Of a stretch of DNA of 64,000 nucleotides, positions 49,201-61,883 are shown in pieces. The DNA lies in the sequence record PP895363.1; one strand, given 5' to 3'. Within the stretch, counting starts at the first letter, position 1; each line of letters starts with the position of its first letter. Origin of the DNA: Klebsiella phage FKP3. The position numbers were made by a program, and so were the translations under genes. The notes below the pieces were generated by a model that was given only the letters and a program-made list of their open reading frames with translations, did not search any database and was not told the origin of the DNA.

Positions 49201-50772
49201 TTAATTTGATAAATTGGCAGCAGATGGGTCTAAAGAAGATACACTTGTAGATGTTCCATTTCCAGCACCAGCGGCTAATCCATCCCCAGCTCTTGAAGTT
49301 TTATCAGGCATATATGTTGCCAAGAACTCTTGGAACTTATCCTCGTCAGCCACAATATCATCAGGAATACGATAAGATAGGCCACACATCTCAAAGAATT
49401 CGTTTAACACCTGTGGTGTTAATGGTATTGCTCCTGCTGCAACAAGTTGCTGGATAGCTTTAGCATTGACTTCAAGATCAGGATCACCAATATCATTACT
49501 CTTGAACTTAGGCATATCTTCATCAGATAAAAATATGTTGTTCATGCGTAATAGTTGGGGAATTACTTGAGTATTTAAAGCTTCTGTGATAATGTCTACA
49601 TCACGTTCTATAAAATGGGATAGGAGTGTTTGTTTATTATCTGCAAGAGAAAAACTACCACCCTCTCCATCTCCCATGATAAGAACACTAGCACCAAACC
49701 TATTATAGATATCTAATTTACGTTGTTTTATTAATGCCTGTGTATCAAATTGCTTACCATTACCTTCCACACCCTGGAAATGCAAGTCATATTGACGCAT
49801 AGAGGTGTTTTCATAAATGTCTGAAGGGAGAACCATATAAGATTGCTCACCTGCGTGTAGGTTAGCTATATTGGCTTGTAGCACTCTGAGAGATTGTGCT
49901 TCGTCACCTTCAGGGTTTAATGATGCCCTATTTAGAATATCACTAGGAACTAATAGAACGGGCATACCGCCTAAGTCTTTAGATACACCAACAACCTCAA
50001 ACTCTTGGATTAAAGATTTTTCACGCCAAGACCTGTAAACTGCCAAGAGAGGACTAACTCCTAATGGAGTATTTTCTGTAATGTTTGTACCCAGATACAG
50101 AACCTTACTCATAGGTATTTCTTTGCGTCCAATGAGATTAGGATTAATATTTCCTACAGAGGTAAGCATTGAATTGGTGATATTCTGATTTACTGTAAGA
50201 ATTGTACGACCATCATCAGAATAAGTGAAAGGTTGTACTGGATCAATTGTATCTTGTGGTCTGAATGCAAGTTTAACAATACGCCAATAACCAAAATACG
50301 GGCTTTTCGGATCTTCATCAAGTTCATAAACTTTCTCTGCAAAAGCAAAACCAAACTGTTTATAGGTTAATAAAGATCTAACATATTGTCTTAATGTTCC
50401 ATTCATATTTCTTAGACAATAATCTACAAATTTTGCAGCTTGTCTTGATTTTTTTGAATTTACATTACTTGTAATAGTAAAATCAAAGAATGCTCTATCT
50501 ACAAAGATGTAAGTAGCATCTAACGCGGTAGCTACATCTGGGTCTTCCCCCATTTCTTTGAAGGTACGGATATTTTCTGGAAAACGAGTCTCATATGGCT
50601 GCATGAAATTAGTGAAAGCCTTAATAGAATTAAGACCAATAGTACCAATTTCAGGAGAGAGTACCAGACTTTTTTCTTTCTCCAAAGATTGTGTTGGAGA
50701 TAAGGCTGCTTTATTTACCTGCCCTTTATTCCAGTAATCCGACTTTTTCGTATATTTACGTTTTCCTGTCAC
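49201..50772 (-). CDS. portal protein
   Basis: 523 aa immediately downstream of terminase. Confidence 0.7.
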   Translation of the reverse strand: MTGKRKYTKKSDYWNKGQVNKAALSPTQSLEKEKSLVLSPEIGTIGLNSIKAFTNFMQPYETRFPENIRTFKEMGEDPDVATALDATYIFVDRAFFDFTITSNVNSKKSRQAAKFVDYCLRNMNGTLRQYVRSLLTYKQFGFAFAEKVYELDEDPKSPYFGYWRIVKLAFRPQDTIDPVQPFTYSDDGRTILTVNQNITNSMLTSVGNINPNLIGRKEIPMSKVLYLGTNITENTPLGVSPLLAVYRSWREKSLIQEFEVVGVSKDLGGMPVLLVPSDILNRASLNPEGDEAQSLRVLQANIANLHAGEQSYMVLPSDIYENTSMRQYDLHFQGVEGNGKQFDTQALIKQRKLDIYNRFGASVLIMGDGEGGSFSLADNKQTLLSHFIERDVDIITEALNTQVIPQLLRMNNIFLSDEDMPKFKSNDIGDPDLEVNAKAIQQLVAAGAIPLTPQVLNEFFEMCGLSYRIPDDIVADEDKFQEFLATYMPDKTSRAGDGLAAGAGNGTSTSVSSLDPSAANLSN

Positions 50773-50869: not shown

Positions 50870-52075
50870 TTATCTTGATCTTATTTTATAAGGTTGACCA
50901 AAAGATGCCCTACTTCCACTAGACATTTTACCATATCCTGTGGTAGCTCCTAGTGGCGTAGGAATGGCTACAGCCTTGAATACAGCCTCTTTCATCAGTG
51001 TATTAAAACAAGATGCCGCAGCATCCGGGATATCGTCTTTGAGTGTTGCAGTAGACCTCTCTCCATTGAAAGATTCTAATTCTTTATAAAAGTGATCTAA
51101 AGTTTCTTTATTTGGGAAAGAGTCTTCAACAATATATACAAAACCATTTTGACAAGCACTACTAAAAGGCATAAAACGCTGTAGTTTCTTTTTGTTCCCT
51201 GGCATTGCATCAGGTTTTACAATGAAACCTTCAGAAATAAGCTTCTTAGCAGATTCTGTATATTCAATCAAACCTGCACCAGATGGGTCTTTAGGAAGAA
51301 CTACAATAACCTCATCTCCATCAATTTTACATTGATTAAGAATCAAATTATCTCGTTCACCCGGTAATCTTCTAAATCTACCAAAGATTTTACTTTTCTC
51401 ATCTACTGCATCGTAATCATAATCTCCGAAGATATAGACATTACCATCAGTATCTTTACCCATTTTGACAGACGTGGTATAGTCTGGATAACGATACGAT
51501 TCTGTCGGAACAGATACAGCTTTATCCCATGCTCGCATATACTTCATATTATTTGGCACATCTGAATATTTAATTACATGCAACCATTCTCTATTGAAGA
51601 AACTTTCTTCTTGTGCTCTTGCAAACCAACACCCATCTAAGAGCTGTGCTCTTTTCACTGCGGTTTGTGCTTTCAGAGAGGCTAGATATTTAGGATTAAG
51701 ACGTATAAGCTCTGGATTATCAAATATAGTTCCGCCGATAAATACAAAGCTCTGCGGTTCGATAGTAACTATTTCGCCTGTATTTGGGTTTTCCATGAAG
51801 CAGTTTTCAGGATACTTTTCCTTTAGTTCTTCTGGGTCTTCTGCAAATACCGGTTCATCATTTACAATAAGAAAATATAGTTGTTTACCACACATGTCGT
51901 CGCGTGGAAATCCTGCTTCATCTAGATAAGGTAATACCCAATTAATAACCCAACTATCTGCATCTGGGTTACAGGTGCATAGCATAAAAGATGTTGCAGA
52001 CTCAGAACGTAAACGACCAAGAAGGTAAAGCATTTCATATTGTGTGAAATGTGTCCTGGTGTTCGAGAAGGCACG
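50870..52075 (-). CDS. terL: terminase large subunit, downstream exon (remainder of ATPase C-motif plus nuclease domain)
   Basis: FMLCTCNPDAD (TxN coupling motif) and nuclease-domain acidic residues; frame open upstream of ATG 52033 to stop at 52076-52078. Confidence 0.75.
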   Translation of the reverse strand, partial: RAFSNTRTHFTQYEMLYLLGRLRSESATSFMLCTCNPDADSWVINWVLPYLDEAGFPRDDMCGKQLYFLIVNDEPVFAEDPEELKEKYPENCFMENPNTGEIVTIEPQSFVFIGGTIFDNPELIRLNPKYLASLKAQTAVKRAQLLDGCWFARAQEESFFNREWLHVIKYSDVPNNMKYMRAWDKAVSVPTESYRYPDYTTSVKMGKDTDGNVYIFGDYDYDAVDEKSKIFGRFRRLPGERDNLILNQCKIDGDEVIVVLPKDPSGAGLIEYTESAKKLISEGFIVKPDAMPGNKKKLQRFMPFSSACQNGFVYIVEDSFPNKETLDHFYKELESFNGERSTATLKDDIPDAAASCFNTLMKEAVFKAVAIPTPLGATTGYGKMSSGSRASFGQPYKIRSR

Positions 52076-53392
52076 TTACGACCTTCCCCGAGATTACTCT
52101 CTGCTGCATGTTTCCATGCAGAGCAGACTATATCATCATCCATTAGGATGCCTTGCGCTTCGCCTCACTTGAGGCTACTCTACTCACTTCCGTATTTCTA
52201 CGTGCTTTCGATAGTCGTTAAACTTTACACCACACAAACTAAAAATTATAATCCTTGGATACTTCTGTAAAAGTTTTCCTAGATTTTATTCCGTACACTC
52301 TCTGATAGTTTAGGTGTTCACTGCAATGCATCTTAACTATTGCACCACATTTAAAACCTTTCTCTAACATCTCGCATATCCATTTAACTGTCTCTACTGA
52401 TAAGGTAGCTGGTCGCGTCAGATTGAAAGTATAATCTTTCACTATGTCTGCAAATATAGCCTTCCTTTTAATATTTCGTACTGTGTGATAAGCTACACCA
52501 ACTGTTTCAGAAACATCTTTCGGACTCAAGCCCTCTTCTAAAAGCTCACAGATCGTTCTTACTTCATGTTCTGTCATATTAGTATTTGGACTATTTATAC
52601 CAGCAGCTTTTACATGTAAACCTGTGTCATAAGCATGTTGTACGTTCTGAGAACAACTTACCCATTCCAAATTACTAGGATGATAATTCATTTTATTTCC
52701 ATCCTTATGGTTTACTTGTTTGTACTCCTCTGGAGAAGGATTCTCTACAAAGATTTCAGCCACTATGACATGGAGAGATTTTGTAGTTCTGCGTCCTGTA
52801 TCAGTAGTCATTGCAACAGCAGGATAACCTCCTCTATTACAACGAATAGTTAATTTATTATTTAGTTTTGTACTAAAGATTTCATAATTATCAGTCATAT
52901 GATACTTAGAAAATCCTTTTATTTCATGCATTTTCACCTCCTGCTAACATTAGGAGTTTGCATGGTGTCTTAGCTTGGTATTGCCCTCGTCTCTACGTTA
53001 GGGGTTTCACCAAATTCACAAGGTTTTCGATACATGTTCCCATGTAAAGGCTCTAAAAATCAAAGCTCGTCGAAACCGACCATACTGTATTGTGTACCTT
53101 GCAGTACGTGTTGATTTACTTAGCATATAGGTAAATCGGAGGATTCCTCCTCACCCTTTATGTTACCATAAAGATCAGACCATATCATAACCCACGTCCT
53201 ATGGGTTGTTGGCGCTTGGAGATCGCTTGATCCCTACTCTACTTACAAGCTTTAGCATCTTGCGTCTTGCTTTCGATGGTCGTTGCACCTTACTCCGAAG
53301 AGTCTTGGCTCAGGATTGTCCTCACAATGAGGAGTTTCCCTGAATTCACCAACTTATTCAACATACATTACTGTATGAGGCCACCAAGTTTA
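52034..53392 (-). mobile_element. intron-like insertion in terL (~1.35 kb; probably group I) carrying an HNH homing endonuclease ORF; exact splice sites not determined
   Basis: Noncoding, structure-rich flanks 52076-52238 and 52938-53392 around an in-orientation HNH ORF; it separates the Walker-A-containing terL segment from the C-motif/nuclease segment. Confidence 0.6.
52239..52937 (-). CDS. HNH homing endonuclease (NUMOD4-like N-terminus, HNH motif NHKDGNKMNYHPSNLEW, C-terminal HTH-like repeats)
   Basis: Motifs seen in translation; embedded in the terL interruption in the same orientation. Confidence 0.8.
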   Translation of the reverse strand: MKMHEIKGFSKYHMTDNYEIFSTKLNNKLTIRCNRGGYPAVAMTTDTGRRTTKSLHVIVAEIFVENPSPEEYKQVNHKDGNKMNYHPSNLEWVSCSQNVQHAYDTGLHVKAAGINSPNTNMTEHEVRTICELLEEGLSPKDVSETVGVAYHTVRNIKRKAIFADIVKDYTFNLTRPATLSVETVKWICEMLEKGFKCGAIVKMHCSEHLNYQRVYGIKSRKTFTEVSKDYNF

Positions 53393-54253
53393 ATGGTTAG
53401 TTTCCGCTGTTACGTTATCATTTTCTAAGTGGTCGAATTTTAATGTTCCACCTCCGGTAGCTCTGAACTCCATTTCCATAGCTTGTTCACGAACATGTGG
53501 CTGAAGTTTCAGATATAGCTTTTTAGCTTCTGTAAATAACCCACCAGGCTTACGTAGAGCTGTTGTATTTTTACGGAATAGGATTCCGCCAAACAGTGGG
53601 TCTTTGCAAGCATATTTTAAAGCTTTCAGCAGGAGTAGACGAGACTTGCCGCTATTCCCAGTAACGAAGATATGATCGCCACGTCTAAAGACAACATAAC
53701 TGCTTGGAGTTTCAAAACAATATTTTTTATCATCACTTGTCATTACCTCGTGTATTTTTAGATAAGTGTTAGTTTTACCTGAGATATTAAATGGTACTCT
53801 TTTACCGAAAGGATTTTCTACATACCCTCTAAGTGGTTCTCCTGCTTGCTGCAATGCAATAAGATCTCCAACTAAAATCTCAAAATGTTTTTTAGATTTT
53901 TTCTTTTTATAGAATACAAACCTGTGTTCCATACTAAGTTCTTGGAATAAACCCACACCATTTGTTATTCTATATAAGTTATCTTTTGTATCATACTCTA
54001 CAAAGTATGGACTAACTAACTCCAGTTTCCTGTTTCTTGGATTGTATTGATAAATATCTTCTCCCGAGTATTGATCAATTCTCTTCCATCCTGCTGGTGT
54101 TAAATACTCTGTCTCTGCTGTAACGCATCCCGCAGCACCCCCATAAATCATTACCTCTGGCATTAAATCCATTGCTAATGTTTGTTTACCCGGTTGAGCT
54201 TTTACTTCAATCTCAATATTTGCTAAGTTTGTCTTAACTGGTTTACGTGCCAA
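53393..54253 (-). CDS. terL: terminase large subunit, upstream exon (Walker A ATPase N-terminus) including an in-frame mini-intein
   Basis: MIYGGAAG...SGKSRLLL reconstitutes the P-loop GGAAGSGKS once residues 43-200 are removed. Confidence 0.75.
53654..54127 (-). other. mini-intein (158 aa) inserted in the terminase P-loop
   Basis: Begins CVTAETEYLTPAGW (block A Cys1), block-B-like SMEH, ends ...HIFVTGN followed by +1 Ser; codon positions verified on the DNA. Confidence 0.65.
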
Positions 54254-54261
54254 AGTTCCTC

Positions 54262-54591
54262 CTATTTAGAAATGATTCCGGCATCTTGCAACGTTTTTAT
54301 GTATGCTTGCAATGCCATCAGCTTTTGTCTATCCTTTTCCCATAAGGCATTGTTCTTTGTTTGATTATCTACAACCTCAGATCTAGAGACGCCTTTTGTA
54401 ATTTGAGTTTGTGTATACACTACAGGTGTTTCTGGAGATTCCAGGTTGCTCTGCTCAGGACTGGCTATTGCCTCTTTTGCAACAGCTTTGCACTCATCAA
54501 TGAGAACTGGTTGGGAATGATTTGTTGATGATGTGCAGCCCGTTATCATTAGGGGCAAAGCAAGACATGCTGCCAGTAGTAGTTTTTGCAT
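54262..54591 (-). CDS. o-spanin (Rz1-like outer-membrane lipoprotein)
   Basis: Signal plus lipobox LMITGC; Pro/Thr-rich; start embedded in the 3' end of the i-spanin gene in another frame. Confidence 0.6.
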   Translation of the reverse strand: MQKLLLAACLALPLMITGCTSSTNHSQPVLIDECKAVAKEAIASPEQSNLESPETPVVYTQTQITKGVSRSEVVDNQTKNNALWEKDRQKLMALQAYIKTLQDAGIISK

Positions 54592-54937
54592 ATTCTTTAG
54601 CCTCTTGTTGGAGTTCAGTTTCTTTTTTCGATAACTTCTCTTTTAGAATTTCAGTATCATTTGAAAGCTTGGCTATTGTATTATTCAACTGAGATCTATC
54701 TGCATCCGCTTTAGCTTGTAATGTATCAAAGTCTTGTTTAGCTTTCGCTTGTTGAATTTGTTGTGTTTGTTGCTCTTTAGCAACCCCTGCATTATAACCG
54801 TCTTCATAAATACTGTTTTTAATATGTATTGCACCAAATACGATAACTAACAGGAGAATAACTCCTATTACAAGATACCTAATCGTCTTGTTGTTCTTTA
54901 TCGTATTCAGTAAAGATATTAGTAAGCTCATCTTCAT
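54497..54937 (-). CDS. i-spanin (Rz-like)
   Basis: N-terminal TM segment, long coiled coil, overlaps the o-spanin gene. Confidence 0.6.
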   Translation of the reverse strand: MKMSLLISLLNTIKNNKTIRYLVIGVILLLVIVFGAIHIKNSIYEDGYNAGVAKEQQTQQIQQAKAKQDFDTLQAKADADRSQLNNTIAKLSNDTEILKEKLSKKETELQQEAKEYAKTTTGSMSCFAPNDNGLHIINKSFPTSSH

Positions 54938-55757: not shown

Positions 55758-55834
55758 TGGTACTCCGAACTGGACTCGAACCAGTGTTTGACGATTATCA
55801 GTCGCCTGTTCTTGCCATCTGAACTATCAGAGTA
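55758..55834 (-). tRNA. tRNA-Ile(GAU)
   Basis: Manual cloverleaf: anticodon loop CUGAUAA, T-loop TTCGAGT, CCA encoded. Confidence 0.7.
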
Positions 55835-55953
55835 TGAATGTGTGGGCTAGTCTCTTAGCCCTATGCTATACTTGTCTCTTACAGACTGACGTAGCACACG
55901 TGCAGCGACCCTTCATATTTATTTTACATCTACAGAAGGTCATTAGATAGATT

Positions 55954-56031
55954 TGGCAGCAAAGCGAGGAGTCGAACCCCTTAGTCTGTGGTTTGGAGCC
56001 ACATAGAGCGCCATGCTCATTTAAACTTGCT
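55954..56031 (-). tRNA. tRNA-Trp(CCA), D-region irregular
   Basis: Anticodon stem TGTGG/CCACA with loop CTCCAAA; T-loop TTCGACT; CCA encoded. Confidence 0.5.
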
Positions 56032-56042
56032 CGGCTATTGTT

Positions 56043-56120
56043 TGGAGTCAGGGGCGGGAGTCGAACCCGCAATCTTGAGCATATGAAACTCACATGGTAA
56101 ATCCATTCCACCACCCTGCG
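56043..56120 (-). tRNA. tRNA-Met(CAU) copy 1 (first acceptor pairs mismatched)
   Basis: Anticodon loop TTCATAT, T-arm GCGGG-TTCGACT-CCCGC. Confidence 0.55.
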
Positions 56121-56127
56121 CATTATT

Positions 56128-56203
56128 TGGTAGTAACTAAGAGAATCAAACTCTTCTCACAACGCCGTATGAAAGCGTTCGAAACATCAGCTTCACAGTT
56201 ACT
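56128..56203 (-). tRNA. tRNA-like, anticodon CAU candidate, atypical T-loop TTTGATT (possible pseudo-tRNA)
   Basis: Perfect 7-bp acceptor AGTAACT/AGTTACT, T-stem AAGAG/CTCTT, irregular D/anticodon arms. Confidence 0.35.
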
Positions 56204-56208
56204 TTTAA

Positions 56209-56472
56209 TTAAACACGATGAATAATTTTAACTGTCTCGCCTTTATCATTCATCAAATAAGCACTTTCATCTTTGTGTATGAAGGTGGTAGAACTTCCGC
56301 TGATAACGCTGGCAATAACACTATCTGGCTTTTGATAGCCTTCAAAATGGTATTGGACTTTTATGTTACCATCGAGTTCTATATAATGTTCTTCTTCATC
56401 TACATCAAAAGGTACTGAATCATAAATTTTTGTCCCTTGTGGGAACTTACGAATAATTTTTAATGTGTACAT
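56209..56472 (-). CDS. hypothetical protein, 87 aa, embedded in the tRNA array
   Basis: RBS AAGGAAG upstream in minus sense; ORF. Confidence 0.5.
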   Translation of the reverse strand: MYTLKIIRKFPQGTKIYDSVPFDVDEEEHYIELDGNIKVQYHFEGYQKPDSVIASVISGSSTTFIHKDESAYLMNDKGETVKIIHRV

Positions 56473-56559
56473 AATGCTTCCTTAGTAGTATTTAGTATTA
56501 AATAAATGTGCCGTCCCAAGCCGAACGGCGATTAGTGTTATTGCTTGGCATTGATAATA

Positions 56560-56634
56560 TGGTACTTCCTACAGGAATCGAACCTATGACGCTCACCGTG
56601 TAAAGATGACGTTCTGCCATTGAACTAAGGAAGT
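56560..56634 (-). tRNA. tRNA-Val(UAC)
   Basis: Perfect acceptor, anticodon loop TTTACAC, T-loop TTCGATT. Confidence 0.7.
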
Positions 56635-56707
56635 ATGGCGGGGATTTCCCGCACTGTCTATCGCGATATGGACTCCGACAGTGTTCTCGGTTAAATACCC
56701 CATTATT

Positions 56708-56795
56708 TGGTGCTTCAGGTGAGACTCGAACTCACAATCCTCTAGGGCGCTGGCTTCTAAGACCAGAGTGTATATCCATTTCCACCACTGAAGCA
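56708..56795 (-). tRNA. tRNA-Leu(UAG), class II
   Basis: 88 nt, anticodon loop CTTAGAA, long variable arm, perfect acceptor. Confidence 0.7.
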
Positions 56796-56925
56796 TTATT
56801 TAGTATAGGTTAAGAGTTGTATCGGCCCTCTTCTTAAACGGTGAAAGGAAAGTTTGGTTTTTCTCCAAACGTGCTAACACCTTTTACATCCACTCTAAGT
56901 CATCGGACGCAACCTATATTTTTTT

Positions 56926-57001
56926 TGGTGGAGCCGGAGAGAATCGAACTCTCAACAGGAAAGGTGCAAACCTCCCTCGCTACCTTAGTACATGCAACCC
57001 C
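56926..57001 (-). tRNA. tRNA-Ala(UGC)
   Basis: Anticodon loop TTTGCAC, T-arm GAGAG-TTCGATT-CTCTC. Confidence 0.6.
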
Positions 57002-57133
57002 AAATTTTTGCGCCCCTTTGTAGTGAATGTCTTTAAGCGGAGTCTTTAATGCAAGCAATAAATTTACTCACACACTTAATCTTAGACCTACTCAGATGGA
57101 CGGCTTTAGCATGGCGTCCCATACCTTCTTAAT

Positions 57134-57209
57134 TGGCACGGATGGAAGGAGTCGAACCTCCGGCGCAGGGCTTCGTAAACCCTCGTTCTGTCCACTGAAC
57201 TACACCCGT
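57134..57209 (-). tRNA. tRNA-Arg(ACG)
   Basis: D-stem GTTC/GAAC, anticodon loop TTACGAA. Confidence 0.7.
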
Positions 57210-57338
57210 ATAATACTTTGCCTAAAACGCCACAACTTGTTTGGTCTTGCACCGTGTCAGTTGCTATTTATCGGTAGAATTTGAGCCATTAACCTGAGCG
57301 AATATTTGTCATGGTTGTCACACCATCAAGGCAAAACT

Positions 57339-57413
57339 TGGTGCAACCTACAGGTATCGAGCCTGTCTATCTGCCTTTTCAGGGCAGCACTCATCCATCT
57401 AAGTCAAAGTTGC
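57339..57413 (-). tRNA. tRNA-Phe(GAA)
   Basis: Anticodon stem CTGCC/GGCAG with loop CTGAAAA. Confidence 0.65.
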
Positions 57414-57553
57414 ATATTATTAATTGTCATCATGGAAACCGAAAATCCACGCCATATCAACTCGAAGTTAAAAATCCTTGACTTCGGCACCATCTGGTGC
57501 TGGCTAGGCACTACCTAGCAGGACAGTCACAAAATCGTGACGATGACAAAATT

Positions 57554-57631
57554 TGGTCTCCGTAGAAAGATTTGAACTTTCGACCCCACCGCCCCAAACG
57601 GCATACTCTGACCAGGCTGAGCTACACGGAG
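57554..57631 (-). tRNA. tRNA-Pro(UGG)
   Basis: Anticodon loop TTTGGGG, T-loop TTCAAAT, perfect acceptor. Confidence 0.7.
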
Positions 57632-57716
57632 ATAATACTTTCGAGGAGATCTCACCCTATACAGCAAAACCGTATACTATCTGTCAGGGTTACTGTATAC
57701 TGTGCTCCTCTGAATT

Positions 57717-57792
57717 TGGCTGGGGATCTTGGAATCGAACCAAGTCGATGACGAGTTCAAAGCCCGTCGCCTTCCCATTTGGCTAATCCCCA
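57717..57792 (-). tRNA. tRNA-Gln(UUG)
   Basis: Anticodon loop CTTTGAA, T-arm CTTGG/CCAAG. Confidence 0.6.
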
Positions 57793-57799
57793 ATTAAAC

Positions 57800-57888
57800 T
57801 GGTATAGTGGACGGGATTCGAACCCGCAAGGTAGTTTCCTACTCTAGATTGAAAGTCTAGCTACTTCGACCGATTTGTATACCACTAT
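57800..57888 (-). tRNA. 89-nt tRNA with class-II-like variable hairpin (GTAG-GAAA-CTAC) but anticodon UUC (Glu)
   Basis: Perfect 7-bp acceptor, anticodon stem CTAGA/TCTAG with loop CTTTCAA, T-loop TTCGAAT. Confidence 0.5.
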
Positions 57889-58007
57889 ATAAAATTATTT
57901 AAAAAGGAATGCTAGAACTTGAAGGAGAAAACCATGAGCGAAAAGAGAAAGTTTTCTAACATTCCTGTCTAAATAATCTTGAAATAATCACTTTGTTCAA
58001 GAGTTGT

Positions 58008-58084
58008 TGGTGCGGGTGACAGGATTCGAACCTGCGACGAACTGGGTGGAAGCCAGACACTCTACCAGACTGAGTTACACACGC
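58008..58084 (-). tRNA. tRNA-Gly(UCC)
   Basis: Anticodon loop reads codon GGA; T-loop TTCGAAT. Confidence 0.6.
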
Positions 58085-58333
58085 ACTGATTAAGAACTCT
58101 ACAATATTACTCTACTACATTTTAATACTTATTGTCAAGTGTTAATTTAAAATTGTGAGACAGTGACGGATATCTCATAGATGACTAATCCTACGTCCGG
58201 CTTAAGCAAGGCGACGATATCGTACACCTTCTCGTCGATTGGCAGGAGCCGTTCCTCCTGAATTACTATCTAGCATCTGAGATGAAGACAGCCTCACCAA
58301 TCAACCTACTCCCAGTCACGGTTTCAGAACTTC

Positions 58334-58409
58334 TGGTGCTCCAAGTAGGTTTCGAACCCACGACCCCATGCTTACAAGGCAAGTGCTCTACCAACTGAGC
58401 TATTGAAGC
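58334..58409 (-). tRNA. tRNA-Thr(UGU)
   Basis: Anticodon loop CTTGTAA; T-loop TTCGAAA. Confidence 0.65.
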
Positions 58410-58626
58410 AAATAGTATTTTATTATTGAAAGGTATTCCACCATAATATCAAGGTTTGCCGATGCAGTAGTTCGGGAACTAGACAATGCCGCTTACGCGC
58501 TGGTTATCTCAATTCAAACCCACTGCAAACCGTGGTAGTTGAGGCCAGTTTCTTTTCCACTTGTTTCCACTTATAAGTCTTAACCAGACCGGGATACGGG
58601 CTTATAAGATCATCAATAATAAAATT

Positions 58627-58711
58627 TGGCGATGGATCAAGGATTTGAACCTTGCTGGAGATTTCTCTCACGGATTAACAGTCCGCCGCCCAACCACTAG
58701 GCCAATCCATC
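58627..58711 (-). tRNA. 85-nt tRNA with class-II-like variable hairpin (GAGA-GAAA-TCTC) but anticodon GUU (Asn)
   Basis: Perfect acceptor GATGGAT/ATCCATC, anticodon loop CTGTTAA, T-loop TTCAAAT. Confidence 0.5.
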
Positions 58712-58788
58712 ATTATTCTTTGTTAAGAGTAGGCGCGTATTCCGTCGCCTCGTGTTATTTTCTCCTGTTTCCAGGCTCCCTTTAGAGC

Positions 58789-58864
58789 AGCGGGCAGGGA
58801 GAATCGAACTCCCTTAGCATCTTTCAGCAAACCCGAAGGTCATTGTCTAGCCACGACCACCCGC
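58789..58864 (-). tRNA. tRNA-like gene without encoded CCA; anticodon arm irregular (possible 9-nt loop containing UUU)
   Basis: Good T-arm GGGAG-TTCGATT-CTCCC and acceptor GCGGGTG/TGCCCGC. Confidence 0.4.
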
Positions 58865-58901
58865 ACAGTTATGTGTACCTCTAAAGCTCTCTTAACTAAT
58901 C

Positions 58902-58984
58902 TGGTGTGGGTAGATGGATTCGAACCACCGCGCCTTTCGGATCTGATTTACAGTCAGGTGCATTCAGCCACTCTGCCATACCCA
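58902..58984 (-). tRNA. tRNA-Tyr(GUA), class II
   Basis: 83 nt, anticodon loop CTGTAAA, variable hairpin CC-GAAA-GG. Confidence 0.65.
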
Positions 58985-59059
58985 CATTATCTGGTGTGGT
59001 ACTTGTTACTGATTCTTCTGACGATACAGATACCTCTCATATAACTTTCCCACATTATC

Positions 59060-59136
59060 TGGTACGCCGGAAAGGATTCGAACCTTTATTCCTCTCGTTA
59101 AAAGCGAGATGCCTTATCCAGTTTAGCTACCGACGC
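59060..59136 (-). tRNA. tRNA-Lys(UUU)
   Basis: Perfect anticodon stem TCTCG/CGAGA, loop CTTTTAA. Confidence 0.7.
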
Positions 59137-59244
59137 ATAAATATTTTTTAAGATAGCAACCGCTTAACGATTGCTATAAGTTAAGGTTACTTTTAAACAA
59201 TAAATCAATCACCAATAACATCCTTGCTATCTTAAAAAACACTT

Positions 59245-59330
59245 TGGCGGAAGAGGGGAGGGTTGAACTCCCACGCCCTTTCGGACGGCAGTTTAGCAAA
59301 CTGCTATGGCTACCATTTCATCACTCTTCC
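59245..59330 (-). tRNA. tRNA-Ser(GCU), class II
   Basis: 86 nt, anticodon stem GCAGT/ACTGC, loop TTGCTAA. Confidence 0.7.
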
Positions 59331-59334
59331 TAAA

Positions 59335-59766
59335 TTAATTTCCTTTCGTTCTGTATTTGATGGCTCTTTTTTCAGGATCGTAGTTTTGTTTTCTTCTTTC
59401 CTGTTCGAGCAATCTTGCTTGTCTATATGCAACAGAACATTCTTCACAACGGCAACCTCTTTTTTGATACGCATAACTTGTACCGTGAACGATAGGTTTT
59501 TCAACCCTGTTTATTACCGTCCCAGTTTCACTTACACGTCTTGCTGCCGCAGAGTTACAGCTATGATGGCTATAACTAATATTCTCTAACCCAAAGAACA
59601 TCTTATCTGGTTCCTCTGAATATCTCCAAGGAACAATGTGTTCAATGCTATAATTGTCTTCGTTCATCTCTTTACCACAATGGTAACAAGAAGTTCTTCC
59701 TGTCTCGACAATCATTTGCCACATGAGTTTTCTTATCAGAATGTTTCGCGCTTTTCCCATCGACAT
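59335..59766 (-). CDS. HNH endonuclease embedded in the tRNA array (143 aa from ATG 59766)
   Basis: Zn-binding CYHCGKEM...SIEHIVPW...HHSCN HNH core; the track start at 59832 overlaps tRNA-Asp, so the internal Met with upstream purine-rich RBS is preferred. Confidence 0.7.
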   Translation of the reverse strand: MSMGKARNILIRKLMWQMIVETGRTSCYHCGKEMNEDNYSIEHIVPWRYSEEPDKMFFGLENISYSHHSCNSAAARRVSETGTVINRVEKPIVHGTSYAYQKRGCRCEECSVAYRQARLLEQERRKQNYDPEKRAIKYRTKGN

Positions 59767-59802
59767 ACCTAACTCGTCGCTCACGATACACTCCTTATAA
59801 AT

Positions 59803-59878
59803 TGGCGCGACTGACGATACTCGAACTCGCATTCTCTCCTGTGACAGGGGAGTACCATTACCTAGCCAGCCCCGCGAC
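59803..59878 (-). tRNA. tRNA-Asp(GUC); acceptor stem has 2 mismatches; flanked by direct repeat GCGCGACT
   Basis: Standard-position anticodon loop CTGTCAC, T-loop TTCGAGT, CCA encoded. Confidence 0.5.
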
Positions 59879-59884
59879 TATAAT

Positions 59885-59986
59885 TTATAAATCTGGTCGT
59901 TCATCTCTGTTAACTAAACGGATACCACCGTCAGATAAAACTTCAAGTTTTGAATATTGATAAACTACGACCTTGTTATCACTCAT
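59885..59986 (-). CDS. small ORF, 33 aa
   Basis: ATG with GGAGT RBS 6 nt upstream. Confidence 0.3.
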   Translation of the reverse strand: MSDNKVVVYQYSKLEVLSDGGIRLVNRDERPDL

Positions 59987-60028
59987 TGTTACTCCGGTTA
60001 ATACAAGCATTATAATCTCCTAAGTTTG

Positions 60029-60118
60029 TGGCGGAAGATAACGGAGTCGAACCATCACCATATCGCTACAGCGGGCTGGTTTTCAAGACCAGTTGCGTAC
60101 CGCTACGCCCTATCTTCC
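60029..60118 (-). tRNA. tRNA-Ser(UGA), class II
   Basis: 90 nt, perfect acceptor, anticodon stem CTGGT/ACCAG, loop CTTGAAA. Confidence 0.7.
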
Positions 60119-60194
60119 ACATCTATACTTACTACTCTATCATACTTTTCAATCAGTTGTCAAGAAAAACTTTCCACCTTTTTTGACAATTATT

Positions 60195-60269
60195 TGGTAG
60201 AGCCACTAGGAATCGAACCTAGACTGTAGAGTTAGAAGCTCCATTTGCTATCCATTACAACATAGCTCC
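60195..60269 (-). tRNA. tRNA-Arg(UCU)
   Basis: Anticodon loop CTTCTAA, T-arm CTAGG/CCTAG. Confidence 0.7.
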
Positions 60270-60296
60270 ATTTATTTAGGCCAACTATAACACACA

Positions 60297-60467
60297 CTAT
60301 TCGTTATTGTCAAGCTCTTTTTTAATTTCTTTTTTAGCTTTCTGACGTTCAGTAGCTTTACACACTTCTTGCCAAGAGTCGTACTCATCTCCTTTACGAT
60401 AGCCACGGCTACGACAAAGAGAACATAGACAACCTTCTTGACTATATTTCAAACCATGAGGTTTCAT
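60297..60467 (-). CDS. small Cys-rich protein, 56 aa (not in track)
   Basis: ATG 60467 after AAGGAA; CxC...C spacing. Confidence 0.4.
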   Translation of the reverse strand: MKPHGLKYSQEGCLCSLCRSRGYRKGDEYDSWQEVCKATERQKAKKEIKKELDNNE

Positions 60468-60475
60468 GAGTTTCC

Positions 60476-60727
60476 TTAGATTATCAGAGTTTTAAACTTA
60501 ATGCAAATGATTTTCTTCTTACCGCCTACATACTGCCAATGATGTATCTCCGCAGCTACTTCTAGGGAAGTTCCTACTTCACGGTAGGCGTGAGTGATTA
60601 CATCAATCCAGTATTCACAATCAGGCTGATAAATCATACTGTAGTGCTTATCAATCAACGTATTGATACCGCCGCAATCTCCAATTGTCTTACGCCACGG
60701 TGTACTCTTCATAACAAACTTTTCCAA
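60476..60727 (-). CDS. hypothetical protein, 83 aa
   Basis: ORF. Confidence 0.45.
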   Translation of the reverse strand: MEKFVMKSTPWRKTIGDCGGINTLIDKHYSMIYQPDCEYWIDVITHAYREVGTSLEVAAEIHHWQYVGGKKKIICIKFKTLII

Positions 60728-60849
60728 GTTTTATCAGGAATTTCTGATGGAGGAATCTTACCTTCTGTCTTGGCTTTATCGTCTACTGCTTTTTTAATAG
60801 CTTGAACCTGTGCCTCGGTTAAAGGGCCATCATCTTTTTCGTATGCCAT
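60709..60849 (-). CDS. small ORF, 46 aa
   Basis: ATG after AGGAGA. Confidence 0.3.
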   Translation of the reverse strand: MAYEKDDGPLTEAQVQAIKKAVDDKAKTEGKIPPSEIPDKTWKSLL

Positions 60850-61192
60850 TATATTTCTCCTATTTATTATCAAAACACATAAAGGAGGACAATGATCAGG
60901 TGACGTTTGCCAACGCCCTGCCGAAGTTTAGAGATGGTTGCAAATCATCCCCAACCGCATCACTGGTTTAAACTCACATGATCAGTGCTTGTTTCTGGAT
61001 ACTCACACGCCCATACGTGCAGACAGTTTTAACGCCAATCAATGCCTTTCTTTATATGTTCTGTATGGTTGACTGCTACAGGACTTGAACCTGTTTCTCT
61101 TCGCGCGGATTTACGTTGTACCAACATGTGAGGAATCGAACCTCTCCACTACCCTACCGAAGCGCATATACCTATCATGCTCATACAGTCAT

Positions 61193-61267
61193 TGGAGGAT
61201 GATATGGGATTTTAACCCATCTAATACTGTTTTGCAGACAGTCTCCTAGACACTCGGACAATCATCC
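61193..61267 (-). tRNA. tRNA-Cys(GCA), T-loop TTAAAAT atypical
   Basis: Perfect anticodon stem ACTGT/ACAGT with loop reading codon UGC; acceptor GGATGAT/ATCATCC. Confidence 0.6.
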
Positions 61268-61276
61268 CATTGAAAA

Positions 61277-61354
61277 TGGTGTGACTGGTGGGGCATGATC
61301 CCACATCATCTCCTTCACAGGGAGAAACGTTAACCAGCTTACGCTCACAGTCAC
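61277..61354 (-). tRNA. tRNA-His(GUG), T-loop sequence atypical
   Basis: Perfect anticodon stem TCTCC/GGAGA with loop reading codon CAC; perfect acceptor; extra 5' G possible. Confidence 0.6.
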
Positions 61355-61708
61355 CATTGATTTTGCAGTTGCTATTCTCCTTAAACACCGCACATACGGT
61401 ATTAAGCAGAATAACTTTCGTGCTGCTTCACGATGTGGAGTTCCCCACATTGAAGTTTGTTCACACTTGTCACAGTGCTTCTCTTCCGAGTAAACCACTC
61501 TCGTAGTTGCTGACAAACAACTCGTAAAATATATTCTCGTAAGAACATATATTGCGAGAGTTTGGCACCAGGAGGAGGAATCGAACACTCCTAATCAGGT
61601 CATGACTCCTGACTATCTCAAACCAAACACTGTTGTGTCGGCTATTGCATAATAGCGAGCGCTCACTCCTATGCAGACCTTCACCAGTGTCGAGATCCTG
61701 GTATTGTT

Positions 61709-61797
61709 TGGTGCGGGTAGTGGGAGTCGAACCCACAGGAGGAAACCCTCCGAGGGATTTTAAATCCCTTGCGTACTGCCAATACCGCCATACCCGC
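61709..61797 (-). tRNA. tRNA-Leu(UAA), class II
   Basis: 89 nt, anticodon stem AGGGA/TCCCT with loop TTTAAAA, variable hairpin GGAGG-AAAC-CCTCC. Confidence 0.7.
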
Positions 61798-61808
61798 ATT
61801 AAATTTAG

Positions 61809-61883
61809 TGACCCCCGGAGGATTCGAACCTACCTACCTCTCGATTATGAGTCGATTGCTCATACCTAATGAGCTTGAGGGCC
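61809..61883 (-). tRNA. tRNA with anticodon CAU (third CAU species: Met, fMet or Ile-lysidine), CCA not encoded
   Basis: D-stem CTCA/TGAG, anticodon loop CTCATAA, 7-bp acceptor GGCCCTC/GGGGGTC. Confidence 0.55.

Follow-up and report, generated by a model that had tools for sequence, protein, structure and literature searches.

Two group I introns and a Walker A mini-intein probably interrupt the large terminase gene of Klebsiella phage FKP3

Architecture of the terL Locus

The gene for the large terminase subunit (TerL) of Klebsiella phage FKP3 raises the question of how one ATPase could be produced from coding pieces that are separated by structured RNA and an HNH endonuclease gene, and whose Walker A motif is itself split by an insert. 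The locus was analyzed within a window of 64,000 nt from sequence record PP895363.1; all coordinates given here are positions in this window, and all features of the terL locus lie on the minus strand. The reading that we favor, to which we assign a probability of about 0.88, is that this myovirus of the Stephanstirmvirinae carries three independent self-splicing selfish elements in a single terL gene, namely two group I introns and an intein. A first-pass annotation made from the sequence alone had counted two selfish elements in the gene, a mini-intein and one group I intron of about 1.35 kb containing an open reading frame (ORF), and three are now found in their place.

The upstream ORF (54253..53390) encodes 287 aa, MIYGGAAG-C43...N200-SGKSRLLL, and its reading frame ends at a TAA (53392..53390), exactly at the stop first noted at 53390-53392. 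In Klebsiella phage KP13-26, a member of the Stephanstirmvirinae and the nearest phage in the collection at 98% identity, terL is an uninterrupted coding sequence (CDS) of 2085 nt, and Blastn of the FKP3 region against this intron-less allele (L001) returned three collinear pieces, the middle one being 36 nt long. Exon 1 (53393..54253, 861 nt) starts with a TTG preceded by GGAGG, comprises the N-extein, the intein and the ATPase segment as far as ...NDNVTAETNH, and is collinear with KP13-26 terL at L001:348-1207 (98%). It is followed by intron 1 (53102..53392, 291 nt), an ORF-less group I intron located by its match to the Rfam model RF00028 and by the KP13-26 alignment. Exon 2 (53063..53101) consists of 39 nt, or 13 codons, which encode QGTQYSMVGFDEL, including Walker B (hhhhDE), and is identical to L001:1209-1247 at 36 of the 39 nt, in frame. 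Intron 2 (52055..53062, 1008 nt), the ORF-bearing group I intron, has boundaries set by mapping against KP13-26. Exon 3 (50870..52054, 1185 nt) begins with THFTQYEMLYLLGRLRS..., encodes the C-motif and the remainder of the ATPase domain together with the RNaseH-like nuclease domain, and is collinear with L001:1248-2432 (98%). The frame thus resumes at 52054 (ACA CAT TTC, encoding THF), not at about 52075 as first proposed. On this map, intron 1 would sit after ...ETNH and intron 2 after ...GFDEL, both within the ATPase domain, and the 1338-nt gap is made up of intron 1, the 39-nt coding exon and intron 2.

Joining the exons in silico gave a 2085-nt ORF, equal in length to the terL of KP13-26, and the base-level mapping against that gene showed that only one choice of boundaries keeps the frame. 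The spliced CDS and the KP13-26 gene differ at 42 nt, and only two of the 694 residues are changed, both of them within the intein. In Pfam scans, the ORF of exon 3 passed the cut-off for Terminase_6N (26.3 bits, cut-off 22) and stayed under that for Terminase_6C (19.8 bits, cut-off 22.6), while no family was matched by the first, 287-aa ORF. Each intron opens with an in-frame stop codon (TAA in intron 1, TGA in intron 2), so ribosomes running past an unspliced exon would halt immediately. Chance is excluded as a source of these features by the RF00028 E value of 7e-21 together with the codon-for-codon match of the spliced CDS to its uninterrupted homologue.

We propose that transcription of the gene would be followed by two guanosine (GTP)-dependent self-splicing reactions joining exons 1, 2 and 3, and that the spliced 2085-nt ORF would be translated into a 694-aa precursor still holding the 158-aa mini-intein. 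Excision of the intein by protein splicing would then restore GGAAGSGKS and leave an active TerL of 536 aa.

Group I Introns and Their RNA Structure

A search with Rfam covariance models, a check that the first-pass annotation had itself suggested, gave one full-length match to RF00028 and two partial matches on either side of the HNH ORF. The full-length match (53403..53156) belongs to intron 1; it scored 87.2 bits against a gathering score of 50, covered model positions 1-253 with an E value of 7e-21 over the whole window, and lies wholly upstream of the HNH ORF. The partial matches, obtained in a permissive scan, cover P1-P6 (53072..52873, 25.7 bits) and P7-P9 (52317..52104, 36.4 bits), with the ORF between them. 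No additional introns were detected when the whole 64-kb window was scanned at the permissive threshold.

These matches bear on the simpler view, close to that of the first-pass annotation, of a single ORF-containing group I intron of about 1.34 kb (53392..52055) in which the HNH gene lies between two structured arms. Mobile group I introns usually have this appearance, with an HNH ORF set in structured non-coding RNA, and Rfam matches do occur on both sides of the ORF. However, the upstream match is complete on its own (model 1-253, 87 bits), and a second full set of P1-P9 helices encloses the ORF; moreover, the two ribozymes are separated by 39 nt that match the intron-less allele at 36/39 positions and supply the Walker B motif, which TerL cannot do without, and excising all 1338 nt would lose 13 conserved residues. 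A single intron is therefore extremely unlikely. What survives of the earlier proposal is the group I RNA with its HNH endonuclease; there are two introns with a 39-nt exon between them, and the supposed upstream arm is really the ORF-less intron, exon 2 and the 5′ half of intron 2. A twintron, with one intron nested in another and no coding exon between them, was also considered and ruled out: both ribozymes are complete, and between them lies an in-frame exon of 39 nt with homology to the intron-less allele.

The arrangement with two separate introns was examined further at the level of RNA structure, using a comparative alignment of six sequences: intron 1, ORF-deleted intron 2, the terL intron of Pseudomonas phage KIL1, and one and two introns, respectively, from the contigs L007 and L009. 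RNAalifold recovered P2, P3, P4, P5, P6/P6a, P7.2, P8 and P9 from this alignment, with compensatory changes in 33 of 49 pairs, and the ORF-deleted intron 2 keeps every core helix. The P7 pseudoknot is formed by GACCAU/AUGGUC in intron 1 and by GACUAU/AUAGUC in intron 2; once it was added, 98.5% of cells were paired, compared with 33-44% in slid controls, and both-sided changes were found in 34 of 55 pairs, values that none of 500 shuffles reached. Most of the structure was derived from the same six-sequence alignment on which these values were computed, and the margin over the controls is very large. Single-sequence minimum free energy folds of the core were rejected in favor of the comparative structure, as they mis-paired P3/P7.2. 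A compensatory change of A162-U171 to G-C was also seen in P7.2 of intron 1 among metagenomic variants.

Both introns end in G, intron 1 with …ACGUACUG (...UACUG) and a P9.1-type 3′ extension beyond the Rfam match, and intron 2 with …ACCAGG. P1 of intron 1 pairs ...CCAU/UAA (the slash marks the splice junction here and the insertion site in the motifs below) with GUGG in the guide sequence, and P1 of intron 2 pairs ...GCUU/UGA with GAGC; in each case the exon U lies in a G·U wobble, the U of intron 1 being the last base of exon 1 (CAT). Intron 2 falls into two halves, P1-P6 at 53062..~52963 and P6a′-P9.x at 52232..52055. They are closed by P6a, whose 5′ arm ACACCA (52963..52968) forms six perfect pairs with the 3′ arm UGGUGU (52227..52232), directly after the HNH stop codon; in the alignment, columns 182-187 and 269-274 show compensatory changes in 6/6 pairs. 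Since ACACCA (52968..52963) pairs with UGGUGU (52232..52227), the HNH ORF and its GGAGG-ATG start are placed in the terminal loop of P6a. Each intron has a P7.1/P7.2-type insertion between P7 and P3′, which suggests that both are IA-like, and from their sequences both ribozymes look like complete, independent and apparently intact group I introns. In a copy of INPHARED that apparently lacks FKP3, no record covers at least 80% of the region or of either intron.

The pieces of the gene could also be read as a broken or naturally split terminase, with the 287-aa and 387-aa ORFs being separate genes or a pseudogene, the HNH gene free-standing, and no RNA splicing involved. The public annotation does list the pieces as separate genes, UniRef names the 287-aa ORF 'Terminase large subunit', and phage genes fractured by free-standing endonucleases exist, such as the split nrdHF with a GIY-YIG gene (PMC7891396). 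Nevertheless, neither of the two ORFs would encode Walker B, the pieces are flanked by two ribozyme cores with covariation, the variation in the 39-nt exon is purely synonymous, and the architecture is gap-free across about 2.5% divergence; in addition, FKP3 is viable, and the part of the window that was scanned showed no second terL ORF. We consequently give a split or decayed terminase hardly any credence and keep to one spliced gene.

HNH Endonuclease, Insertion Sites and Mobility

The HNH ORF spans 52937/52931..52239 in the orientation of terL. The first-pass annotation had placed it at 52239-52937; it is indeed present there, though the likely start is rather the ATG at 52931 behind GGAGG, which gives a protein of 230 aa (52239..52931). 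This protein matches Pfam HNH_3 (PF13392) with 30.3 bits against a cut-off of 24.8, I-HmuI, the nicking endonuclease encoded by the SPO1 intron (PDB 1u3e), with an E value of 5e-8 over residues 3-107, and phrog_59 with 2.5e-38. Its N-terminal HNH domain is I-HmuI-like and precedes helix-turn-helix modules; the protein is about 30% identical to the HNH ORFs of the terL introns of L008, L011 and Escherichia phage PD114 and about 29-30% identical to gp14 of Salmonella phage PVP-SE1. Upstream of its start, within intron 2, lies a CUCCU-N9-AGGAG hairpin (52956-52938), in which three of three metagenomic variant positions fall in the loop and none in the stem; it could perhaps sequester the HNH ribosome-binding site.

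The presumed target of the HNH enzyme is the intron-less terL of co-infecting relatives, which it would nick or cut near FDEL/THF; repair would then copy intron 2 into the cleaved gene. The candidate substrate is KP13-26 terL around GACGAGTTAACGCATTTTACC, with a putative nicking site near GACGAGTTA/ACGCAT in the intron-less allele. Intron 1 would most likely spread by co-conversion, that is, by hitch-hiking, since it lies 39 nt from intron 2 and has no endonuclease of its own; both the HNH target site and this hitch-hiking are inferred. The intein, in turn, would persist only through retained splicing, because its endonuclease domain is lost and it is fixed in the subfamily.

The homologue alignment proposed in the first-pass annotation defined the insertion sites and allowed other terL genes to be compared at them. 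Site A (NH/QG), occupied by intron 1, also holds group I introns in the more distant metagenomic TerL genes L008, L009 and L010; that of L008 has an HNH ORF, whereas that of L009 is ORF-less and nearly identical to intron 1 in P1-P2. The terL genes of L007 and L011 are interrupted a few residues from site A. An intron at site B (FDEL/THF), occupied by intron 2, turned up only in the FKP3 lineage. A third site, GGTI/FDNP, is interrupted in PD114, and the group I intron of KIL1 terL lies at the corresponding FIAANV/YDNP. In PD114 (L003, MH675927), terL is annotated at 1566-2573 as two 'hypothetical proteins' around a 226-aa HNH-type ORF, with a sub-threshold group I match of 45.8 bits; from its sequence, the interruption looks like a further unannotated intron at the same motif as the KIL1 intron.

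Further elements were seen in two of the metagenomic contigs. The terL of L009 (an ENA ERZ1524541 contig) contains an intein, the site-A intron and a second intron at KDD/IPD, and its portal gene region has an HNH ORF and a sub-threshold group I match. L011 (a Logan SRR33913771 contig) has several HNH ORFs and group I matches within and after terL.

Exon 2 is exactly 13 codons long and the two ribozymes are alike, so exon skipping of the kind seen in SIOphi TerL and Twort is conceivable; in FKP3 it would give an in-frame TerL without Walker B.

The Mini-Intein in the Walker A Motif

The insert in the Walker A motif (GGAAG/SGKS) occupies 53654..54127 (474 nt, 158 aa, C43..N200 of the precursor) and splits GxxxxGKS between positions 4 and 5 (GGAAG/C...N/SGKS). 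Its extent, its Cys start, the SMEH block and the final Asn followed by Ser had all been given exactly in the first-pass annotation. The key residues are Cys1, Ser65-x-x-His68 (block B, SMEH), Cys137, Thr156-Gly157-Asn158 and Ser at +1. The insert is absent from the homologues P0018, P0020, P0021, P0024 and P0045, which are 55-64% identical in TerL, lack residues 43-200 and show an unbroken YGG-AAGSGKSR. Other TerL homologues carry inserts of 147-160 aa or of about 327 aa at the exact same site, and 15 of 15 aligned inserts start with Cys and end in GN before SGKS. The forms of about 327 aa have LAGLIDADG-like motifs in mid-insert, as judged by eye, the Pfam support being one sub-threshold match in one of the two that were scanned.

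An AlphaFold (AF2) model of the 158-aa insert (pLDDT 85.7, pTM 0.76) has a HINT fold. Among the Foldseek matches shown for it in the PDB, almost all are inteins, hedgehog Hint or BIL domains, most with a probability of 0.94-1.00; the better ones reach TM scores of 0.5-0.65, and the AceL NrdHF class 3 split intein (6zgq) ranks first. The same structure was the only solved one with significant sequence similarity when a profile of 12 mini-inteins was searched against the PDB (E 1.6e-11), and a single-sequence phmmer search of the PDB with the intein returned noise only. In the 12-sequence alignment, which extends to about 27% identity, Cys1, His68, Cys137, Thr156, Gly157, Asn158 and Ser+1 are invariant and position 65 is Ser or Thr; in an alignment of 30 rows, Cys137 and Asn158 are invariant and the other key residues are at least 90% conserved. 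Judged from the presence and absence of the insert at its site, its modelled fold, its catalytic residues and its larger relatives, the P-loop insert is a mini-intein that lacks an endonuclease domain; absence from five intein-less homologues, the HINT fold and conserved catalytic residues here bear out what the first-pass annotation had proposed.

The insert was found in at least 132 phage records of the Stephanstirmvirinae, including phi92 and phAPEC8, and in every TerL examined there, so this intein appears to have been overlooked while being fixed across the subfamily. Such fixation would also suit a lineage-specific domain that is kept in the mature TerL, either a dead intein or a non-splicing HINT domain, and the same can be said of the missing endonuclease domain and penultimate His and of the blindness of the Pfam and NCBIfam intein models to the insert. 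As long as it interrupts GxxxxGKS between positions 4 and 5, however, the insert should prevent ATP binding; Cys1, His68, Cys137, Thr156, Asn158 and Ser+1 are invariant among the 12 mini-inteins; nucleotide differences inside the insert are mostly silent; and the AceL NrdHF intein splices efficiently while likewise lacking the penultimate and block F His (PMC7891396). We thus regard a retained domain as very unlikely and continue to treat the insert as an intein.

The AceL intein (Ser65, His68, Cys124, Thr144, Asn146 and Ser+1, with neither the penultimate nor the block F His; PMC7891396) shares with the FKP3 intein the block B Ser65/His68, a hydrophobic residue other than Trp at B:12 (Phe in FKP3, Met in AceL), a Cys about 21-22 residues before the C-terminal Asn, Thr at G:5 and Ser at +1. 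The two differ in that the AceL intein is split, lies in NrdHF and has Ala1, whereas that of FKP3 is contiguous, lies in TerL and has Cys1. Cys137 and Thr156 stand at the distances from Asn158 expected for block F:4 and block G:5, the equivalence of Cys137 to AceL Cys124 being positional only; a profile of the C-terminal part (blocks F and G), searched against the PDB to align these two residues, gave spurious toxin A repeat matches only. Under the operational definition of PMC7891396, which allows no Cys/Ser/Thr nucleophile at position 1, the FKP3 intein falls outside class 3, as Cys1 is invariant in the 12 mini-inteins; its mechanism may be that of class 1 or a class 3-like one with Cys1 kept. 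With Cys1 retained beside an AceL-like, putative block F Cys, a block G Thr and the missing His residues, the TerL mini-intein might belong to a lineage bridging class 1 and class 3, an idea that we hold to be doubtful. An intermediate between the two classes has been argued to be improbable, and class 3 inteins have been proposed to arise by convergence (PMC7664689); if the idea were true, with splicing through the block F branched thioester or through either nucleophile, the intein would be a natural class 1/class 3 intermediate.

Relatives of the intein were also seen outside this gene. Among Corynebacterium phage Lederberg, Pseudomonas phage PS119XW and Escherichia phages 19-1-2/TH18, inserts that are 34-38% identical to its N-terminal half occur in genes for RtcB-like RNA ligases and in an unrelated terL, and this half also matches PHROG 32482, annotated as PhoH-like. 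From these sequence matches, the intein family apparently occupies several host proteins.

Indications That the Gene Is Functional

FKP3 was plaque-purified and grows lytically (PMC11663894). As the phage is viable and the only terL detected has the three elements, both introns and the intein presumably splice. The locus recurs, gap-free and at 97.3-97.6% identity, in at least six Logan contigs that stem from other sequencing runs; two of these cover the whole 3384-nt gene and four end inside it. Between the spliced frame and the two full-length contigs there are 53-64 differences; 48-58 of them fall at third codon positions, and only 5-6 alter an amino acid. All three substitutions seen in exon 2 among the metagenomic variants are synonymous and at third positions, and the intein differs from that of contig L014 at 10 nt with two residue changes. 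Constraint on the HNH ORF is looser: its 14-15 nt differences from the two full-length contigs lead to 7-8 aa changes. This pattern of substitutions indicates that the spliced frame is under strong purifying selection.

Several points weigh against three self-splicing elements in this gene. Both RNA splicing and protein splicing are inferred, from the viability of the phage and the structure of the gene. For intron 2, no single Rfam match reaches the gathering score (25.7 and 36.4 vs 50 bits), because the ORF splits the model; no convincing P10 pairing was found for it, nor any pair of intron-less and intron-plus alleles at site B in other lineages. The synonymous differences from KP13-26 cluster at the junctions, with 8 of the 42 within 52 nt. 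For the insert, no intein family was detected in Pfam (E ≤ 0.01) or NCBIfam (E ≤ 1), and Gly157 stands where the penultimate His of an intein would be. The junction cluster was also considered as a co-conversion tract and rejected as clean evidence, given that intron-less Justusliebigvirus alleles carry the same bases.

Comparison with Known Systems

Intron 2 resembles the phage IA introns with I-HmuI-like HNH endonucleases, namely the SPO1 DNA polymerase intron and the primase/helicase intron of Salmonella phage PVP-SE1, in its P1-P9 core, its P7.1/P7.2 insertion and an HNH ORF in a peripheral stem. In the ribozyme core, stretches of 60-73 nt share 90-93% identity with the PVP-SE1 intron; there, the annotated CDS is a join that skips an HNH gene. 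The FKP3 intron differs from both in its host gene and site, being in terL after FDEL.

The terL genes of Bastillevirinae (SIOphi, phiAGATE) contain two to three group I introns with small internal exons, HNH ORFs and exon skipping, and are spliced in vivo (PMC11878797); the FKP3 gene is like them in having several introns, a small internal exon and an HNH ORF. The terL of Pseudomonas phage KIL1 is an annotated joined CDS with a single intron (RF00028, 94.7 bits). The Bastillevirinae and KIL1 are phages of Bacillus or Pseudomonas, and their terL genes belong to unrelated families or are interrupted at different sites; in KIL1 and PD114 the interruption is in the GGTI/FDNP motif rather than at NH/QG or FDEL/THF, and none of the terL genes of Bastillevirinae, KIL1 and PD114 is reported to have an intein in the same gene, unlike that of FKP3. 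The ribonucleotide reductase gene bnrdE of SPβ is described as housing both a group I intron and an intein, in the passage of PMC8270828 that cites Lazarevic 1998. As presented there, bnrdE resembles FKP3 terL in combining RNA- and protein-splicing elements in one essential phage gene, and differs in the gene, in the host phylum and in having one intron rather than two. In view of bnrdE and of the Bastillevirinae terL (PMC11878797), the first-pass annotation overstated the case in calling the combination unusual.

P-loop inteins are also known from mycobacteriophages, where splicing of the TerL1-a/b inteins was shown and argued to be required for function (PMC5050341). They lie inside the Walker A motif of the large terminase, as in FKP3. 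FKP3 TerL, however, is a Terminase_6 protein, and the Terminase_6-like proteins in the survey of PMC5050341 had inteins only at the C-motif; the FKP3 site lies between x3 and x4 of GxxxxGKS, whereas the mycobacteriophage site is at or next to K/T, and no sequence relationship between the two inteins is detectable.

Annotation of the Locus and Its Relatives

In genomes of the FKP3 type, terL is annotated piecemeal, as a 287-aa "terminase large subunit", a gene for an HNH protein and one further ORF. In UniRef, the records A0AAU8HZN4 and A0AAU8HZG1 (FKP3) give the identical 287-aa ORF the name 'Terminase large subunit', and the identical HNH protein is listed as a separate gene under the name 'HNH endonuclease'. 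The intein is unmarked in the TerL records inspected. Introns and inteins are not mentioned in the FKP3 paper (PMC11663894) or the 'Sichuanvirus' paper, and the literature yielded no report of an intron or intein in the terL of FKP3, 'Sichuanvirus' or other Stephanstirmvirinae. A paper from 2024 states that no inteins had been reported in coliphages (PMC11162368). In the BASEL supplement (PMC8594841, file 5), 0 inteins are given for Bas61 EmilieFrey, yet its TerL (L020, 676-2760) has the GGAAG/C...N/SGKS insert; either the 1-2 inteins counted for Bas60 and Bas62 lie in other genes, or the counting is inconsistent.

Each kind of element is already known, with precedents for their combinations. 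What is new is the triple arrangement in a phage infecting a Gram-negative host, the corrected annotation of the gene, and an overlooked subfamily-wide intein that has class-3-like residues together with Cys1. Many of the phi92/phAPEC8-like phages with the unmarked intein are therapy candidates, and, because the intein is unmarked in TerL records, ICTV-recommended TerL phylogenies for the subfamily mix intein and extein signal. With three self-splicing elements needed for one essential ATPase, the locus would offer a compact natural test bed. Since an ORF-less intron lies 39 nt from an endonuclease-bearing one, hitch-hiking (collaborative homing) could be tested against close intron-less relatives such as KP13-26; the mini-exon provides a system for probing exon skipping, and mechanistic studies could draw on the intein, which is related to a class 3 intein and yet has Cys1.

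Neighboring Genes

Just upstream of terL, two small overlapping ORFs (54262-54937, minus strand) correspond to i-spanin/o-spanin (Rz-like) genes in the annotation of relatives, and the portal gene lies downstream of terL at 49201-50772. Just upstream of the lysis/terL block, about 20 tRNA genes form a dense array on the minus strand (55761-61883), within which a sub-threshold tmRNA-like match (56926-57001) and a tRNA-Sec-like match (60033-60118) were observed.

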